From assembly GCA_017561935.1 (NCBI GenBank), contig JAFZBE010000043.1:1982-65981 (forward strand): 64,000 nucleotides of DNA. Reading direction: 5' to 3'. Below are positions 423 to 9,593 of this stretch, piece after piece (positions within the stretch are counted from its first letter, which is position 1; every line of letters starts with the position of its first letter). Origin of the DNA: Bacteroidales bacterium. Its GTDB lineage: Bacteria; Bacteroidota; Bacteroidia; Bacteroidales; UBA3663. Both the position numbers and the translations under genes were made by a program. The notes beneath the pieces were generated by a model. The model made no database searches. It saw only the letters and a program-made list of their open reading frames with translations, and was not told where the DNA came from.

Positions 423-1277
423 TCATTCTTCTTCCTTCACGTCCCTAAACATACTATATATGGGATGATTGGCATAGTCGATACGGGAACCTGCAGGCAC
501 ATACAACGTGATCTTTGACAAATCAATTCCCAAGAATGTATTGGGGAAATCGACAGGCTTTGTATGCCGGAGATGTATCTCGGTGAGGATTGAACAATCT
601 TCGAATACCCAAATACCGAGTTTTGACACACGGGCGGGAATCGTTACCGTGGTGAGGCTTGTACAATTACTGAACGCATTTTCTCCAATCTCGGTTACGC
701 TGTCGGGTATTTCTATCGAAGTGAGACTGGTGCAGTAGTCGAAGGCCTCTGTCTCAATCACTGTAACACTGTCGGGGATTTCGATCGATGCGAGGCTGGT
801 GCATCCCATGAAGGCACTGCATCCGATCTTGGTCACGCCGTGGGGGATCTTTACCGAGGTGAGGCTTTCGCAACCACTGAATAAATTGCTCTCAAGTTCG
901 GTCACTTTGCCGGGTATTTCGATTGTGGTGAGGCTAGTGCATTCGTGGAAGGCCCATAGACCTATTGTTCTTACATTGCTGGGGAGCATTATCGAGGTGA
1001 GGCTGGTGCATCCTCTGAAGGCATAGCCTCCTATCTCGGTGACACTTTCGGGAAGATTGATAGTGGTGAGATTGGGGCAATCGCTGAAGGCTGCAACCCG
1101 AATCTCTGTGACTCCGTTGGGGAGATTGATCGAGGTGAGGCCCTTGCAGTCTTTGAAGGCCCAATTCCCGATTGCTGTCACATGGTTGGGGATAGTCAGT
1201 TCGCCGGTGCAGCTCTTGTCGCAGTTGACTAAGGTCTTGCCGGAGTCGCTGTAGTGGAGAGGAGGGGTCTGATTCAT
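423..1277 (-). CDS. BspA-type leucine-rich repeat protein (LRR_5-like); no signal peptide or T9SS CTD seen
   Basis: About 10 tandem ~23-aa repeats of the form IP.SVT.IG..AF..C.SLTSI. Possible -7 box (rc of caaagata) at 1298-1305. Confidence 0.85.
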   Translation of the reverse strand: MNQTPPLHYSDSGKTLVNCDKSCTGELTIPNHVTAIGNWAFKDCKGLTSINLPNGVTEIRVAAFSDCPNLTTINLPESVTEIGGYAFRGCTSLTSIMLPSNVRTIGLWAFHECTSLTTIEIPGKVTELESNLFSGCESLTSVKIPHGVTKIGCSAFMGCTSLASIEIPDSVTVIETEAFDYCTSLTSIEIPDSVTEIGENAFSNCTSLTTVTIPARVSKLGIWVFEDCSILTEIHLRHTKPVDFPNTFLGIDLSKITLYVPAGSRIDYANHPIYSMFRDVKEEE

Positions 1278-1851: not shown

Positions 1852-1859
1852 TATCTTTG
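1852..1859 (+). promoter_or_regulatory. Bacteroides-type -7 promoter box TAtcTTTG
   Basis: Exact TAnnTTTG match. It is the only such box I see between 1620 and the ATG at 2203. Confidence 0.5.
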
Positions 1860-1865
1860 CAGCGA

Positions 1866-2058
1866 CCATTTCGACAAGTCGAAAACAAAGACGAATTATA
1901 ACATGTAAAGGAGGTGAAAATGGATTTGAGACGTGGGCTTCAATAGCCCGTCTCACAATCCGGAAAATTGTCGCCTCAATGGCGACATAAAATTGCTATC
2001 GCATAAAATCCATCCGGATCCAAGTCTATTGAGCCCGCTGTCTCCTGCCATTTTCACA
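1866..2058 (+). promoter_or_regulatory. structured 5' leader with an SD-preceded 8-codon uORF upstream of the radical SAM operon
   Basis: Hairpin TTTCGAC-AA-GTCGAAA (1869-1884). AAAGGAGGTGAAAATG with uORF MDLRRGLQ* (1920-1946). Perfect 10-bp closing helix GTGAAAATGG (1914-1923) / CCATTTTCAC (2048-2057). Long imperfect hairpin 1922-1961. Hairpin TGTCGCC-TCAAT-GGCGACA (1969-1987). Alternative pairing of 1928-1939 with 2031-2044. Confidence 0.45.
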
Positions 2059-2202
2059 AGAATTAGAAATAAACACTTAAACCGTTTTTGGTATATAGAA
2101 GCGAGCAATTTAACCAATCGAAATACGTGGAAACGTTTACTTTTTGTAGTTTCCTTCATATATAGGTGAATGGACTACATTTTTACCACTGTATAAATAC
2201 GC

Positions 2203-3495
2203 ATGCTTTCACAAACTACAAAAACCATTTATCTGGCAAGGACATTGAGTCCGCTGCTGAATACGTCCTATCCCTTGCACAAGGAAGATTGGCTCGCCTA
2301 TCGTGTGGAAGGGACACTGCCGTATGATGACGTTGGGCCGATGTCGTTCTACCTGCATATCCCCTTCTGCCGTCATCTGTGCCGCTTCTGCGAATATACG
2401 CGCATGAGCCTGCCTGATGACATGCGTCAGCTGCGTTACCTCGATGTGCTTGCACAGGATATCGAACGATTCCTTGCTGCGCACCCCGACACGGTGCTTC
2501 AAGGCTTCGACATCGGAGGGGGCACGCCTACGGCTCTCTCTCTCGACAACTTCCAGCGCCTGATGACACTCTATGCCGACACCGTGCGCCGCGTGCAACT
2601 CACTTCCGATTTCGAACCCAGCATCGAAGGCACCTTCCTTACCCTCGACAACGAGAAGCTCGACGCTATCGCCCAGGCGGGCATCCGCCGCCTTTCGCTT
2701 GGTGTGCAGACCTCCTCCTCCACCGTATTGAATGCACAAGGACGCAACAATGTCGATGCCGACGTTATGCAACGCATCCTCGACCAAGCCCATGCAGCAG
2801 GCATCCGCAAGGTCAACCTCGACCTGATGTATGGCCTCGCTGGGCAGGACGATGCTTCAAGGCAACGCGACCTTGACGTGATTCACCACCTCATGCCCGA
2901 GCAGGTCACGCTCTACGAACTGCGCGTCAACATGCTGCCTGGGGTACAGTCGGCGAGCAAGGAGGAACTCTACAATGCCTATTGCTCCTGCTACGAAGCG
3001 CTCATCGGCATGGGCTACCACGCCCGCTTCGGACAGAACACCTTCTCGCGTTCCGACAGTGATTTCGGCGTCTCGTCATACCTGCGTAACCGTATGCTCA
3101 AGGGTACATCTTATCGCGGTTTCGGCATCTCGGCACAGAGCATGAGTGCCGCTGGCATCGCCTATAACCCCGGGAAGAACGAGCACAGGTTGTCGTCCTT
3201 CCTCGACCGCGCCACTTTCGACGAAGAGACACATTACGCCCTGCCACCCGAGGAACTGCTCTCGAAGTACATCGCCATCGCAGCCTACAGCGGCGGTTTC
3301 TCGCTCGACATTGCTTCGAACATCCTCGGGCACGATGCCGGCGAGCATTTCAGCGACGAGCTCGCCTTTTGCCTCGATGAAGGATTGCTCACCCTCGACA
3401 ACGACCGCGTGCAGATCACCCGCAAGGGGTTCCTCCACTACGGCGCCGTATTTTCATTATTCTATTTGAACCACAAAAACATTAAAACGAATTGA
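2203..3495 (+). CDS. class C (HemN-like) radical SAM enzyme, coproporphyrinogen-III-oxidase family
   Basis: CxxxCxxC in HIPFCRHLCRFCEY. FDIGGGTPT motif. 430 aa is a HemN/HemW/ChuW-like size. Stop at 3495 and the next ATG at 3497. Confidence 0.85.
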   Translation: MLSQTTKTIYLARTLSPLLNTSYPLHKEDWLAYRVEGTLPYDDVGPMSFYLHIPFCRHLCRFCEYTRMSLPDDMRQLRYLDVLAQDIERFLAAHPDTVLQGFDIGGGTPTALSLDNFQRLMTLYADTVRRVQLTSDFEPSIEGTFLTLDNEKLDAIAQAGIRRLSLGVQTSSSTVLNAQGRNNVDADVMQRILDQAHAAGIRKVNLDLMYGLAGQDDASRQRDLDVIHHLMPEQVTLYELRVNMLPGVQSASKEELYNAYCSCYEALIGMGYHARFGQNTFSRSDSDFGVSSYLRNRMLKGTSYRGFGISAQSMSAAGIAYNPGKNEHRLSSFLDRATFDEETHYALPPEELLSKYIAIAAYSGGFSLDIASNILGHDAGEHFSDELAFCLDEGLLTLDNDRVQITRKGFLHYGAVFSLFYLNHKNIKTN

Positions 3496-3496
3496 T

Positions 3497-4492
3497 ATGG
3501 AAGAACAGATACCCATGGCCGTCAAACTAAAGAACTACGGACAAGTGCGCACATTGGCCGATATCGCCAAGGCGCTCAATGAGCAGCACCACTACAAAAA
3601 ACTAAATGATTTCTACGAAGACCTCCAACAACAAATAAGCGACTATATGGAGCGTGGCACAATCACAGACGATGCCCTCGAAAGCTTCAAGCTGATGATG
3701 GACAAAAACGCCGGCAGTTGGTTCTCAGACGGGCACTTCGACACCGACCAGATGTTTGCACACCTCGAGAACGAAATCGACAACGATGCCACGACAGCTC
3801 TCGACCTCATCTACGAGCGTCGTGCCTATGCCAAACTCGGGCACTTTGTAATGCTGATGAATGAGATTGCACGTTTTACCGACCCGCAAACCCTGATGGA
3901 TGACATCCACATGGCGTTTGAACGTAAGACGGATGATTGTTCCGACCAATATTTTAGATGGAACGACGATTTTATTACCTATAACCTCCATTATAGCCTA
4001 AAAAAACACTGGCAACTCGTGATCGACAATGAGAAACACCTCGACAACGATAAGCTGGAGAAGTTCTTAATCGGCAAACATGAGATGCGTGTCAGGACCC
4101 TAGGACTCGATGAGGTTATCCGCCGTGACTATGAAAACGACTACTGCCAGACCAATTTAATGTACCCCAAGACAGGTGGTACAGGACCCATCTATTGGGA
4201 CCTCGAGGATGGTAACTATTTAAAGCTATGCAGTGCTACTCGCAGGCAAGTATTTCCCCCAGGGAAATATGAGTTACCAATCCTGACCCCCGTCCTTGAA
4301 CGTCTCTGCCAGGGTGATGATCCCGAATACATCCATTATTATAGTATATACCTTCCCATTCGCGATTTTTCACGGCCTATTTACAACGACAATGGCAAAG
4401 TCGTCTTCCGCGACGAAACAGACAAGAAACTCTATTTAATGCGGCTACTCAAGGAATACAAGGCACAAGAGAAGAATGATGAGCAATCATAG
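3497..4492 (+). CDS. hypothetical acidic 331-aa protein; no motif recognised
   Basis: Long ORF tightly packed between two radical SAM genes (2-nt gap upstream, 17-nt overlap downstream). Composition looks protein-like. No signal peptide or TM segment seen. Confidence 0.7.
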   Translation: MEEQIPMAVKLKNYGQVRTLADIAKALNEQHHYKKLNDFYEDLQQQISDYMERGTITDDALESFKLMMDKNAGSWFSDGHFDTDQMFAHLENEIDNDATTALDLIYERRAYAKLGHFVMLMNEIARFTDPQTLMDDIHMAFERKTDDCSDQYFRWNDDFITYNLHYSLKKHWQLVIDNEKHLDNDKLEKFLIGKHEMRVRTLGLDEVIRRDYENDYCQTNLMYPKTGGTGPIYWDLEDGNYLKLCSATRRQVFPPGKYELPILTPVLERLCQGDDPEYIHYYSIYLPIRDFSRPIYNDNGKVVFRDETDKKLYLMRLLKEYKAQEKNDEQS

Positions 4493-5363
4493 CCTGTTCG
4501 GACACCCTATCGAGCTGAAGACGCACGGCTGCAACAGGCCGGGCATCCCCGCGCAACCCATTCCCCCTGCGGTCAACCTCTTTGTCAAGGTGACCGCAGG
4601 GTGCAATGCACGTTGTCTCTTCTGCTCGAATGCAGGCACGCATGCTACGGGTGAGTTCGATACCGACAAGCTCTTCGAATGCATCGACGAGGTCTTGGCC
4701 CATGACATCATCGTCAACCGCATCAACATCACGGGTGGAGAGCCCTCTGTGGTCACTCCACGCGTCGCCAGCATCCTCGAACGGTTGTGCCATGCGCCTT
4801 ATCAGGATATCCACGTCCACCTCAACACCAACGGGCTCCTCCCCCAGTCGCAGGCCCTGATGCAGCATCCCCGATGGAACTCCATCTCGATGTCGCTCCA
4901 TCACTACGACCTCGGCAAACTCTCGGAGATCTACGACACCCGCATCCCACAGACGGCCTTCCAGTTTGAGGGCATCGACCTGCAGAAGGTGAATGCCAGC
5001 TGCAACCTCATCAGAGGCTACATCGACACGCCCGAAGAAGTGGGACGTATGCTCGACTTCGCTCTCTCACTCGGCCTCCCGCGTCTGGGCTTCGTCTCAC
5101 TCATGAAGGTCAACGACTATTGCCGTAGCCATTATGTTGATTTCTCGGAGATTTGCCTCGACACCATCCCCCATCTATACCCTACCCAGACGATGGACCG
5201 CGGGCTGGACTGCAAGTGTTCGAACTACCTCTACAACAAGGATCTCAAGATTCTGGAGGTCTATCTGCGGAACTATATGAATCCTCAGTTTTGTGCCTCT
5301 TCGCTTGTGTTTGATGGGCAGTTTCTGCGGCAGGGATTCCATTCGAAGAATGTTATTTATTGA
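4476..5363 (+). CDS. radical SAM protein with a MoaA/activase-like core
   Basis: VTAGCNARCLFCSN (CxxxCxxC), ITGGEPS and LNTNG motifs in MoaA-like order. Overlaps the upstream stop. Confidence 0.8.
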   Translation: MMSNHSLFGHPIELKTHGCNRPGIPAQPIPPAVNLFVKVTAGCNARCLFCSNAGTHATGEFDTDKLFECIDEVLAHDIIVNRINITGGEPSVVTPRVASILERLCHAPYQDIHVHLNTNGLLPQSQALMQHPRWNSISMSLHHYDLGKLSEIYDTRIPQTAFQFEGIDLQKVNASCNLIRGYIDTPEEVGRMLDFALSLGLPRLGFVSLMKVNDYCRSHYVDFSEICLDTIPHLYPTQTMDRGLDCKCSNYLYNKDLKILEVYLRNYMNPQFCASSLVFDGQFLRQGFHSKNVIY

Positions 5364-5434: not shown

Positions 5435-7780
5435 TTACTTCAGGTCGTAGGCGAGGGACTGGAGAATGTTCTTCGAGGAGTTGCCGATGAGGAAGTTGAA
5501 GCGGCCGGGTTCGGCACGCCAATCGCGGGCGGCAACGTCGTAGAACTGGAAGGCGCGGTCGTTGAGAGTGAGGGTAACCACCTTGGTCTCACCTGGCTGG
5601 AGGAAAACCTTCTGGAAGGCCTTGAGCTCCTTGAGGGGACGAGCGACCGACGACTTGACATCCTGGACATAGAGCTGAACGACCTCGGCACCTGCACGGG
5701 AACCGGTGTTGGTGACGCTCACGTTGACCTTGACGGCACCTGGAGTGGCATCGACCACTGCGGCATCGTGCATGGTGAAGGTGGTGTAGCTGAGTCCGTA
5801 GCCGAAGGGGAAGAGGGGCTGGAACTTCTGACGATCGACGTAGCGATAGCCTACTTCGAGACCTTCGTCATAGTAGATGTCCCAGAGATGGACGGTGCTG
5901 TCCTGACGCTCGATGCCGGGATAACGGCGCGGATCGGCCACACGCTGACGGCCCTGCTTGAGAACGGGAGCATGGACGGCGCACTGGTCGAGCGAAGCAT
6001 ACCACGTCATGGGCAGATGGCCCGAGGGGTTGACATCGCCGAAGAGGACCTGTGCGAGCGAGGTGCCTGCCTCGGAACCGAGATACCAGTCCTGAAGGAC
6101 AGCGGGCACGTCGTTGATCCATGGCATGGCCACGGCATTGCCTGAGATGTTGACCACGACGAGACGCGGATTAGCCTTTACAAGAGCCTTGATGAGCTCG
6201 TCCTGTCCGTAAGGAAGGGCGTAGTCGGCACGGTCGGTGCCTTCGTTGTCCTGTCCACCGGACTTGTTGAGACCACCGATGAAGATGACCACATCGGCCT
6301 CGCCAGCCATGCGTACAGCCTCGTCGCAAAGCTCCTCGGCACTGCGTGAGTCGTTGAGGTCCTGACCGGTAGATACACCATTGTAGGAACCACCTGGGTC
6401 ACCCACATAGCCACGGGTATAGCTCACATTGACATGCGTGCCGGCCAGACGTGCCTTGATGCCATCGAGGGGCACGATCTCGTGCTGCGCCTTGAGGCTG
6501 CTGGAGCCACCGCCTACGGTCATCATCTTGATGGCGTTCTCGCCAACGACAAGAAGGCTGCGAACCTTAGACAGGGTCAGGGGAAGTAAGGGTTCTGAAA
6601 GGTTTGAAGGGTTTGAGAGGTTTGAGGGGTTTGAGAGGTTTGAGGGGTTTGAAGGGTTTGAGAGGTCGTTCTTGAGGAGGACTATGCCTTCGGCACCTAC
6701 CTGCTGGGCCAGCTGGATATGGGCTTCGCTGTTGATGGAGCCGAAGCCGCGATTGCGGTTCATGGTGGTACGGAAGATGAGACGCAAGACGCGACGCACC
6801 TTGTCGTTAAGCTCCTTCTCCCCTACCTTACCATCGAGGATGAGCTGGCGGTAGGGATTGGCCATGAGGTAGTTGTCGTAGGCGTTGGTGGCACCCATCG
6901 AGAGGCCATCGGTCCATGTGCCGAACTCAAGGTCAAGCCCGTTGTAGATAGCCTCCTGTGTGCTCTGTGTGCCTCCCCAGTCGCTGATGATGGCGCCGTC
7001 GAAGCCCCATTCACCTTTGAGGATCTCGTTCATGAGATACTGGTTGTGGCAGGCGTGCTGGCCGCGGAAGAGGTTGTAGCCTCCCATGAGCGTCCAGGCA
7101 CCACCCTCGCGGATAGCGGCCTCGAAGGCGGGCAGATAGATCTCGCGCAAGGTACGTTCGTCACAGATGGCGTTGGAGGTGTAGCGCTCGTGCTCGTTGT
7201 TGTTGAGCGCATAGTGCTTCACGCAGACGGCCACGCCCTGCTGCTGCACTCCCTTGACGTAGCCTACGCCCATGCGACCCGAGAGGTAGGGGTCTTCGCC
7301 CATGTACTCGAAGCTACGACCATTGAGGGGCGTGCGACAGATGTTGACACCTGGGCCGAGGAGGACGGACTTGTTGCGGTAGCGAGCCTCTTCGCCGATG
7401 GACTGACCATAGCGCAGGGCAAGGTCGGTGTTCCAGGTGGCGGCAAGACAGGTGAGGGCGGGGAAGGCTGTACACGAGTCGTTGGAGCAGCCAGCCTGCT
7501 CCCATTCGTCCCAAAGTACGTCGGGACGGATACCGTGGGGACCGTCGGTACACCAAAGTTCGGGAATGCCAAGACGGCCTACGCCTGGGCTGGAGAACTT
7601 GGATTGTGCATGGATGATGGCGATCTTCTCGTTGAGCGTCATGCGCGACAAGGCGTCATCGACACGTTCCTCGATGGTCTTGCTCTCGTCGAGATAGACG
7701 GGCAAGGTCTGGGCCTGAAGGGTACCTGTTGTGAGGAGCGATGCAAGAATTATCAGATTATGAGGTTTCATTTTTATCAC
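5435..7780 (-). CDS. glycoside hydrolase family 3 beta-glucosidase, secreted
   Basis: Signal peptide MIKMKPHNLIILASLLTTGTLQAQ. GH3 nucleophile motif ISDWGG. The LLKN...LPL domain-2 start is interrupted by an SN(P/L) repeat. Confidence 0.9.
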   Translation of the reverse strand: MIKMKPHNLIILASLLTTGTLQAQTLPVYLDESKTIEERVDDALSRMTLNEKIAIIHAQSKFSSPGVGRLGIPELWCTDGPHGIRPDVLWDEWEQAGCSNDSCTAFPALTCLAATWNTDLALRYGQSIGEEARYRNKSVLLGPGVNICRTPLNGRSFEYMGEDPYLSGRMGVGYVKGVQQQGVAVCVKHYALNNNEHERYTSNAICDERTLREIYLPAFEAAIREGGAWTLMGGYNLFRGQHACHNQYLMNEILKGEWGFDGAIISDWGGTQSTQEAIYNGLDLEFGTWTDGLSMGATNAYDNYLMANPYRQLILDGKVGEKELNDKVRRVLRLIFRTTMNRNRGFGSINSEAHIQLAQQVGAEGIVLLKNDLSNPSNPSNLSNPSNLSNPSNLSEPLLPLTLSKVRSLLVVGENAIKMMTVGGGSSSLKAQHEIVPLDGIKARLAGTHVNVSYTRGYVGDPGGSYNGVSTGQDLNDSRSAEELCDEAVRMAGEADVVIFIGGLNKSGGQDNEGTDRADYALPYGQDELIKALVKANPRLVVVNISGNAVAMPWINDVPAVLQDWYLGSEAGTSLAQVLFGDVNPSGHLPMTWYASLDQCAVHAPVLKQGRQRVADPRRYPGIERQDSTVHLWDIYYDEGLEVGYRYVDRQKFQPLFPFGYGLSYTTFTMHDAAVVDATPGAVKVNVSVTNTGSRAGAEVVQLYVQDVKSSVARPLKELKAFQKVFLQPGETKVVTLTLNDRAFQFYDVAARDWRAEPGRFNFLIGNSSKNILQSLAYDLK
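6591..6665. repeat. 9-bp in-frame tandem repeat (GGTTTGARR x about 8) inside the GH3 gene
   Basis: Seven full units from 6600 to 6662, plus a degenerate unit at 6591-6599. Encodes LSNPSNPSNLSNPSNLSNPSNLSEP. Confidence 0.9.
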
Positions 7781-8899: not shown

Positions 8900-9058
8900 T
8901 GTATTTTTGTTAACTATTGAATGCACGAAAAGGTTTATAAAAGATCACGGATAACCAGGATTTAACGGATATTAGCCTGTAGAAAGAGGAATTCTGAGTG
9001 CATTACTTCGTCGCACTCAGCGCGGATAAAGCGGATGTTTGGTCAGATAAACTAGTCA

Positions 9059-9433: not shown

Positions 9434-9516
9434 AAATCTTTTAAAACCAATTACGGAAAGAATGATCGCGTCAAGCATCTGTGTTATCTGTTCTGAGTGC
9501 GACGAAGTAATGCACT

Positions 9517-9524
9517 CAAAGATA
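9517..9524 (-). promoter_or_regulatory. -7 box TAtcTTTG for the GxxExxY gene
   Basis: Reverse complement of caaagata. It sits immediately upstream of the 27-bp arm, so the transcript would begin inside the arm. Confidence 0.45.
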
Positions 9525-9593
9525 ACTATCGACGATACATAATCCGTTAGATCTTAGTTATCAGTGATCTTAACCAATGATCATAGTAGAGGT

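Follow-up and report, generated by a model that had tools for sequence, protein, structure and literature searches.

The window, a stretch of 64,000 nucleotides (nt) from contig JAFZBE010000043.1 of a Bacteroidales bacterium, carries three closely packed genes. They encode a HemN-like radical S-adenosylmethionine (rSAM) enzyme, an orphan partner protein and a second, smaller rSAM enzyme, which we call rSAM-A, MID and rSAM-B, respectively. Relatives of this triad fetched from other genomes are numbered as loci (L001 and onwards). A single nucleotide (position 3496) separates rSAM-A from MID. MID and rSAM-B overlap by 17 nt (4476-4492), or by 14 nt with the second ATG at position 4479, which is suggested by the starts of the homologues. 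A first-pass annotation, made from the letters alone, had already given the 17-nt overlap, and its 2-nt gap was corrected to 1 nt. The G+C content is approximately 0.56 in both enzyme genes versus 0.47 in MID. The results showed that the triad is an accessory, mobile, three-component rSAM module of Bacteroidales. We regard it as a genuine, conserved type of system that has no description to date, and the window copy is its minimal form.

Table 1. Coordinates of the triad and of other features (window positions unless a locus is named; aa, amino acids; ORF, open reading frame)
Feature	Position	Strand	Remark
rSAM-A: HemN-like (class C-type) radical SAM enzyme, 430 aa	2203-3495	+	intact ORF
MID: orphan 331-aa partner protein, macrodomain-less form	3497-4492	+	intact ORF
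rSAM-B: small MoaA/viperin-like radical SAM enzyme, 295 aa	4476-5363	+	intact ORF
Bacteroidetes-type -7 promoter motif TATCTTTG	1852-1859	+	pattern match; likely operon promoter
338-nt leader, window-unique	1865-2202	+	no homology to L025/L026, which have a 138-aa gene there
BspA-type leucine-rich repeat (LRR) gene	423-1277	-	LRR_5, 234 bits
GH3/GH16/SusD polysaccharide-utilisation locus	from 5435 (GH3 gene 5435-7780)	- (GH3 gene)	ORF list, family matches
Helicase + AAA pair in relatives	L002 3486-8432; L005 2935-7986; L007 3037-8113	divergent	three different flanking contexts

In each locus that was fetched and whose flanks were readable, the three genes lie side by side. The order is rSAM-A, MID, rSAM-B in the window, L001-L010, L025 and L026, and MID, rSAM-B, rSAM-A in L011-L016, L018-L024 and L027-L033. 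That the genes stay linked through such a rearrangement speaks strongly for a joint function. The first-pass annotation had supposed as much from the packing, and the contrary outcome that it had named, a trio not co-conserved in related genomes, did not occur. Across the loci, the identity to the window protein was 42-93% for rSAM-A, 23-88% for MID and 56-95% for rSAM-B. There were 831 homologues of rSAM-B at E ≤ 1e-20, and nearly all of the 120 listed are 292-294 aa long. Where a source could be identified, it was a rumen or gut member of the Bacteroidales, with a Prevotella plasmid and a P. pectinovora protein among the examples; a pattern scan of GTDB gave 8 loci only. The plasmid copy lies on pE2-28 (205 kb) of Prevotella sp. 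E2-28 (L024), where the gene order is ADP-ribosylglycohydrolase (ARH), NUDIX, DUF6717, two DUF1810 genes, a stand-alone 293-aa MID, rSAM-B and rSAM-A.

Four loci (L001, L010, L025 and L026) are syntenic with the window and have the same GH3/GH16/SusD locus downstream. Compared with L010 and L026, the window lacks approximately 490 bp between the end of rSAM-A and the part of MID that encodes the motif YGQVRTLAD. This deletion, which is common to the window, L001 and L025, cleanly removes a macro-like domain and leaves a new start codon 1 nt past the rSAM-A stop codon. A CotH-family gene lies between the trio and GH3 in L001 (3313-5628) and L026 (4460-6778), and L010 has the same spacing. The gene is missing from the window, and the junction is therefore a hotspot of gene gain and loss. 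In L034, a 91%-identical relative, a YkvA-like gene and recN follow GH3 in place of the trio. These differences indicate that the site is variable between close relatives, which agrees with the "accessory-looking gap" seen in the first pass. The trio was not found beside 80 metagenomic GH3 homologues, of which only L034 and L035 were close enough to inform on the site.

The sequence comparison with the syntenic loci showed that MID diverges faster than its neighbors. The window and each of L025, L001 and L026 are approximately 91% identical in rSAM-A and 94% identical in rSAM-B, and the MID identities are 88%, 69% and 54%, respectively. At the nucleotide level, the identity between the window and L001 is 91-93% and drops to 71-85% only inside MID. 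The synonymous divergence (dS) from L001 is 0.65 in MID and 0.31-0.39 in the flanking genes. The ratios of nonsynonymous to synonymous divergence (dN/dS) from L001 are 0.12 for rSAM-A, 0.28 for MID and 0.09 for rSAM-B. This indicates that the three window genes are under purifying selection and are not decaying. The divergence pattern of MID points to allelic replacement or to diversifying pressure on this gene.

rSAM-A matches Pfam Radical_SAM (E 7e-15) and, weakly, HemN_C (23.1 bits, cut-off 24). The cysteines C56-x3-C60-x2-C63 and the motif GGGTPT are invariant across the family and are features of the superfamily level only. The N-terminal motif NTSYPL..DW is invariant and specific to the family, and the only conserved cysteines are the three of the cluster. 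The best NCBIfam match is the uncharacterised STM4012 family (NF006067), with 145.7 bits for the window protein and 142.4 bits for that of L005 against a cut-off of 380. ChuW/HutW (TIGR04107; 132.5 bits, cut-off 400), HemN (TIGR00538; 124.7 bits, equivalog cut-off 324.95) and HemW (TIGR00539; 120.4 bits, cut-off 205.4) were also matched below their cut-offs. rSAM-A aligns near full length with the STM4012 profile (residues 46-416) and with HemN 1olt (45-411), and the ChuW/HutW and HemW matches cover only residues 46-244, the N-terminal half. By sequence, the closest solved relatives are HemN 1olt (5e-23) and then the class C methyltransferase NocN 9p2u (6e-13). Class C (HemN-like) rSAM enzymes use two molecules of S-adenosylmethionine. 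The neighbors of STM4012 are presumably the STM4011, 4013, 4014 and 4015 genes. STM4011 was absent among the 25 best NCBIfam families for rSAM-B, the comparison being with NCBIfam profiles.

rSAM-B matches Pfam Radical_SAM (E 5e-12), and its C43-x3-C47-x2-C50, GGEP and NTNG motifs are invariant. All motifs reported in the first pass (CxxxCxxC in both enzymes, GGGTPT in rSAM-A, GGEP and NTNG in rSAM-B) were recovered. The division into two subfamilies also held, since NCBIfam and PDB sequence matches make rSAM-A HemN-like (class C) and rSAM-B a small MoaA/viperin-like core. Five additional cysteines of rSAM-B (C19, C176, C246, C248 and C273) show no variation among 11 aligned family members, and a second, auxiliary Fe-S cluster is therefore plausible. 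The scores were 46.8 and 52.5 bits for MoaA (TIGR02666 and TIGR02668; cut-offs 284 and 325), 41.3 bits for HxsC (cut-off 267.9), 38 bits for NrdG (cut-off 131) and 32 bits for viperin (NF038283; cut-off 180). The PADLOC pVip match (E 3e-8; 1.5e-12 for the L018 homologue) covers only positions 5-98 of the 257 of the profile. Among PDB sequences, PqqE, viperin and BlsE were matched at approximately 1e-3. rSAM-B resembles the nucleotide-acting rSAM enzymes MoaA, viperin/pVip and QueE, and no moaC, moaB, moaD or moaE was found near the triad in any locus. The profile searches of both enzymes, which the first pass had proposed, thus gave superfamily-level matches only, all under the cut-offs.

The window MID is acidic and hydrophilic (isoelectric point 5.05; grand average of hydropathicity -0.77), and the Pfam, NCBIfam and PHROG scans placed it in no family. 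PADLOC-DB 2.0 gave no match at or below 0.001 for MID in any architecture, the window MID having a weak match to Orf5 (E 0.0022). The profile of the MID domain matched no PDB sequence (best E 3.9). The first structure model of the window MID was mediocre (14 sequences; predicted local distance difference test, pLDDT, 74), and Foldseek found no PDB match for it. The protein had been described as acidic, soluble-looking and without a placeable motif, and the searches, including the proposed structure comparison, bore this out. It had also been taken for an orphan, which is correct, but it is a truncated form of a family whose members usually have an N-terminal macro-fold, ARH or DUF1810 domain. 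The first search gave only 13 relatives, mostly of approximately 495 aa. A HMMER scan of cluster representatives gave 109 clusters at 50% identity, and the family profile gave at least 1872 proteins at 90% clustering. The C-terminal 330 aa of the relatives correspond to everything that the window MID encodes. The invariant residues, in window numbering, are G15, T19 and D22 (motif YGQVRTLAD), N122, D136, W172, C217, C245, E259 and Y278.

Most relatives of MID have an additional N-terminal domain of approximately 165 aa, which matches NCBIfam NF049995, "A1S_2505 family phage non-structural protein" (129 bits). This domain was found in 25 of the 71 sampled family members, and phages carry it too, in 453 records and in crAss-like polyproteins. 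The full-length relative P0006 was modelled from a 76-sequence alignment (pLDDT 85.7; predicted template modelling (TM) score 0.78). In this model, the MID domain runs from a helical domain through a small beta-subdomain to a long terminal helix, and Foldseek found no match for it in PDB or BFVD. The N-terminal domain of P0006 was matched to TARG1 (4j5q), DarG (5m3i), MacroD1/2, PARP14 and the alphavirus (CHIKV) nsP3 macrodomains, with probabilities of 0.9-1.0, target TM-scores of 0.5-0.63 and E-values of 0.05-0.5. The A1S_2505 domain is thus predicted by the model to have the three-layer alpha/beta/alpha macrodomain fold.

MID is also fused to an ARH domain in proteins of 737-875 aa, to DUF1810 in proteins of approximately 766 aa and, rarely, to an FtsZ/tubulin domain. 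The ARH and FtsZ forms retain the macro-like block. In P0033 (724 aa) and two other members, the FtsZ/tubulin GTPase domain lies between the macro-like and MID domains. DUF1810 matches only Rv1873 (PDB 2jek), whose molecule name gives no function. Two possible functions of MID itself were considered and dropped: that of a glycyl-radical protein, as the RVxG[FWY] motif is missing, and that of an ADP-ribosyltransferase, as the candidate triad has a variable His and the fold was not detected.

Genes related to ADP-ribose also lie next to the triad. In L020 and L021, a NUDIX-NrtR-type regulator and a separate ARH gene are directly upstream, and L012 has a NUDIX gene upstream and a MID that also lacks the macro domain. 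A divergent SIR2 gene lies beside the triad in L013 and L027-L029. It was rejected as an ADP-ribosylating SirTM because it has the canonical CobB deacylase motifs, including the catalytic His, and it is therefore given little weight for the ADP-ribose theme. In the nearest non-syntenic relatives of the window clade (L002-L004, L005 and L007-L009), a divergent helicase and AAA pair adjoins the trio, and the outer flanks differ. The helicase (approximately 1092 aa) is of the AAA_34/Helicase_C_4, strawberry-notch-like type and has no PADLOC or NCBIfam match. The ATPase (550 aa) is IetA-like, after an anti-phage ATPase (PADLOC E 5e-27), and is below the NCBIfam cut-off. The pair may form a five-gene system with the trio, or may be a separate two-gene candidate defence system. 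As a side observation, a DUF3990/ART-PolyVal (ADP-ribosyltransferase-like) gene is followed by a NADAR gene in L005 (15751-17068), 3 kb downstream of the trio, and the two look like an ADP-ribosylation toxin-antitoxin-type pair.

The first pass had proposed to compare defence and metabolic contexts, and both were found, some loci lying in defence islands (L018, L020 and L022) and others among housekeeping genes. Upstream of the triad in L018 (1-7974) are BREX PglZ/BrxL, ShosA (215 bits), a ShosT-like 640-aa protein, a HAD phosphatase and a protein like the exonuclease VII large subunit; umuDC and an IS1595 transposase lie downstream. L020 has WYL, RNase T, Fic/RhuM and two GmrSD genes downstream, and L022 has a DEAD/MZB helicase, a transposase and a Schlafen-AlbA protein upstream. 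No heme, molybdopterin or glycyl-radical enzyme gene was adjacent in any fetched locus. None of the helicase, AAA, NUDIX, ARH, DUF1810, SIR2 and macro genes seen in the relatives occurs in the window. With its macrodomain lost and without the helicase and AAA neighbors, the window copy would therefore be a minimal catalytic core.

The other surroundings of the triad in the window were partly as first described: the LRR gene, the polysaccharide-utilisation locus, a small upstream repeat and a structured leader were found. Upstream of rSAM-A, the block 1789-1864 is the only stretch conserved with L025 and L026 (83-89% identity); it precedes the same operon there and holds the -7 motif. A scan for sigma-70 promoters and terminators was no better than with shuffled sequence. 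The leader contains an inverted repeat (1928-1946 and 2026-2044), its RNA fold has -89 kcal/mol (z = -4.9 versus shuffles), and a comparison with the window and the fetched loci gave just one further match, of 21 nt and in the window. Rfam gave nothing in the window or in the leader. The 138-aa gene of L025 (7889-8305) and L026 (238-654) lies directly upstream of rSAM-A and has a weak PHROG match (phrog_1238, E 6e-7, annotated phosphoheptose isomerase) and no Pfam match. It was dropped as a fourth component because it is absent from the window and every other locus.

The intergenic repeated element at 1378-1700 is probably the palindromic repeat noted in the first pass. Its partial copies at 8940-9027 and 9466-9571 (73-77% identical) are in intergenic regions of the polysaccharide-utilisation locus. 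LRR-domain genes also flank the triad on plasmid pE2-28 (L024 2655-3779 and 11880-13604). This adjacency may be coincidental because BspA-type LRR genes are believed to be common in Prevotella. In the GH3 beta-glucosidase gene, a 9/18/27-nt tandem repeat (6588-6666) encodes a low-complexity insert of the NPSNLS type, and L034 has a different, non-repetitive peptide at this position.

Because MID carries a macro, ARH or DUF1810 module in most relatives and NUDIX and ARH genes are often adjacent, the data suggest that the substrate, product or regulator of the triad is derived from nicotinamide adenine dinucleotide (NAD+) or ADP-ribose, or is an ADP-ribosylated macromolecule. The first-pass background had pointed to heme, menaquinone and natural products; the neighbors and fusions tie the triad to ADP-ribose and NAD instead. 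We believe that the triad probably belongs to the nucleotide- or ADP-ribose-centred conflict systems of the anti-phage type. We infer, with a probability of roughly 0.4, that rSAM-B and rSAM-A act sequentially on an NAD+/ADP-ribose-type substrate or an ADP-ribosylated macromolecule, that MID selects it and that the accessory modules process ADP-ribose. In such a sequence, rSAM-B would start radical chemistry on a ribose-containing substrate, and rSAM-A would then add a methyl or methylene-derived group. MID, as a fast-evolving third subunit with an orphan fold, would bind or present the substrate and set the specificity. The macro, ARH, NUDIX and DUF1810 modules would supply, recognise or clear ADP-ribose species. 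We know of no report of such radical SAM chemistry on ADP-ribose.

A further, more doubtful step would make the triad a new immune or conflict system, in which the two enzymes work on an ADP-ribose- or NAD-derived molecule or an ADP-ribosylated target and the diversifying MID is the sensor or specificity factor. Phages widely carry a domain to which the macro-like module is related, a hint of an arms race for the same metabolite. Several results weigh against the ADP-ribose reading and its link to defence. The E-values of the macrodomain matches are weak, though the matches are uniform. The likeness of rSAM-B to nucleotide-acting enzymes lies mainly in the generic rSAM core (approximately residues 30-140). 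No ADP-ribose-related gene accompanies the triad in the 64 kb of the window, the PADLOC-DB 2.0 models matched neither rSAM-A nor MID in any variant (threshold 0.001), and no relative of the triad was found in IMG/VR with the patterns used. L011-L016 and L027-L031 are flanked by ordinary genes, and the ordinary neighbors of several loci encode peptidase, fucosidase, CobB-type SIR2, UvrA, TcdA and FHA proteins. With several loci among ordinary genes, an enrichment in defence islands is therefore not established, and the association of the triad with defence is suggestive.

The main rival explanation is protein maturation, in which the two rSAM enzymes modify MID itself, for example at Cys217 and Cys245 in the beta-subdomain, to give an active effector or carrier. 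In that case, the macro, ARH and NUDIX modules would control MID through reversible ADP-ribosylation, for which the SirTM-macro-GcvH-L operons are a parallel. The strict 1:1:1 linkage and the translational coupling are consistent with this, as is the invariant Cys pair in the most conserved segment of MID (CHPEV..PK..GTGPVYV...KSCGEGKGP). rSAM-B matches families that act on proteins or peptides (HxsC at 41 bits, the NrdG/PflA activases and SPASM maturases) at similar scores, and twitch/SPASM maturases have an auxiliary cluster of the kind that its extra cysteines suggest. On the other hand, MID is a folded protein of 330 aa, and its invariant D22, N122, D136, W172, E259 and Y278 look ligand-binding or catalytic rather than those of a substrate. 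The GEGKGP after the second cysteine is not kept in the window clade (LCSATRRQ), and MID has neither HxS-type repeats nor a leader peptide. The neighboring SIR2, found in one lineage only, is a canonical CobB and not a SirTM. There is a precedent for two rSAM enzymes that mature a protein effector, the HXS system (PMC13128918). We consider the maturation of MID somewhat less likely than the ADP-ribose reading.

Ordinary anaerobic cofactor metabolism, with rSAM-A as a heme enzyme of the HemN/HemW/ChuW type, rSAM-B as a MoaA or activase type and MID as an accessory chaperone, is improbable. It would account for the E-values of the NCBIfam matches (1e-35 to 1e-38 for ChuW/HutW, HemN and HemW; 1e-12 to 1e-14 for MoaA), for HemN 1olt as the best PDB sequence match of rSAM-A and for the loci among housekeeping genes, but every score is far under the curated cut-off and the pathway neighbors are absent. 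The presence or absence of the triad among close relatives, its plasmid copy and an obligate partner from a macrodomain-fusion family also argue against it. Still less probable is a cluster for a ribosomally synthesised and post-translationally modified peptide (RiPP) or another natural product, in which the enzymes would tailor a small peptide or secondary metabolite encoded nearby: thiopeptides are tailored by class C enzymes such as NocN/NosN and TbtI, NocN ranks second among the PDB matches, and rSAM-B weakly matches SPASM peptide maturases, but rSAM-B (295 aa) has no SPASM domain and matches in the core only, the genes after the triad vary by locus, no small ORF is conserved across the loci (the 138-aa gene being confined to L025 and L026), no RiPP recognition element (RRE) or PqqD-type match was found in Pfam or NCBIfam, and the triad has no conserved neighbor of the RRE, protease, transporter or other biosynthetic kind. 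The first pass had likewise seen no plausible RiPP precursor nearby.

The three proteins have no functional annotation, fall in no curated family and lack a solved relative. A reading of the triad as an ADP-ribose-centred conflict system would, if true, link rSAM enzymology with ADP-ribose signalling, which would be new biochemistry, and would assign a role to the A1S_2505 macro-like domain found in hundreds of phages. The MID domain would then be a new protein fold family. Should the role lie outside defence, the strictly conserved rSAM pair and its orphan partner remain a well-defined target in the search for new enzymes. The window, L025 and L001 copies, without macrodomain or helicase and AAA pair, are a natural minimal version and convenient for reconstitution.

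The claim that no described pathway fits the triad held against known systems. The curated cut-offs of HemN, HemW, ChuW, STM4012, MoaA, viperin and HxsC were not reached, PADLOC-DB 2.0 matched only the generic pVip core (rSAM-B) and the IetA-like neighboring ATPase, and neither the triad nor a pairing of ADP-ribose modules with two rSAM enzymes was found in the searchable literature. rSAM-A shares CxxxCxxC, GGGTP and a weak HemN_C tail with HemN, HemW, ChuW (HutW), NocN-NosN and STM4012. It differs from HemN, HemW, ChuW and STM4012 in scores mostly 2.5-3 times under the curated cut-offs and in its own NTSYPL..DW motif, and from HemN-type enzymes in its obligate partners, which are rSAM-B and MID and never heme genes. 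rSAM-B is similar to MoaA and viperin/pVip in size, rSAM core and GGEP and NTNG-type motifs, but only its N-terminal core of approximately 100 residues aligns with them, and the triad has no MoaC or kinase partner. Its conserved C-terminal cysteines recall the auxiliary cluster of MoaA, whereas their spacing (CxC-x24-C) is unlike that of MoaA.

The N-terminal domain of the MID relatives (NF049995, with its predicted macrodomain fold) belongs with the TARG1, DarG, MacroD and A1S_2505 modules, and ARH and NUDIX modules are fused to MID or adjacent to the triad in several loci. The triad differs from such ADP-ribose-processing modules in having no ADP-ribosyltransferase as a conserved partner, and the window MID lacks the macrodomain entirely. 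Among named defence systems with rSAM enzymes, Ophion and HXS come nearest. The Ophion system combines an rSAM enzyme with PHP and PRTase, components unlike those of the triad. In the HXS anti-phage system, two rSAM enzymes (HxsB and HxsC) mature the protein effector HxsA (PMC13128918). HXS (HxsA-D) and the triad both have two co-operating rSAM enzymes and a protein partner in one operon, and rSAM-B has the weak HxsC-like match. They differ in that HxsB is a SPASM enzyme and not HemN-like, its profile not being matched by rSAM-A, and in that the triad lacks an HxS-repeat effector, a peptidoglycan-binding domain and a small counterpart of HxsD; MID looks cytoplasmic and has an unrelated sequence. 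If it does act in immunity, the triad would be a third rSAM strategy of bacteria, beside the viperin-type chain terminators and the protein maturation of HXS.

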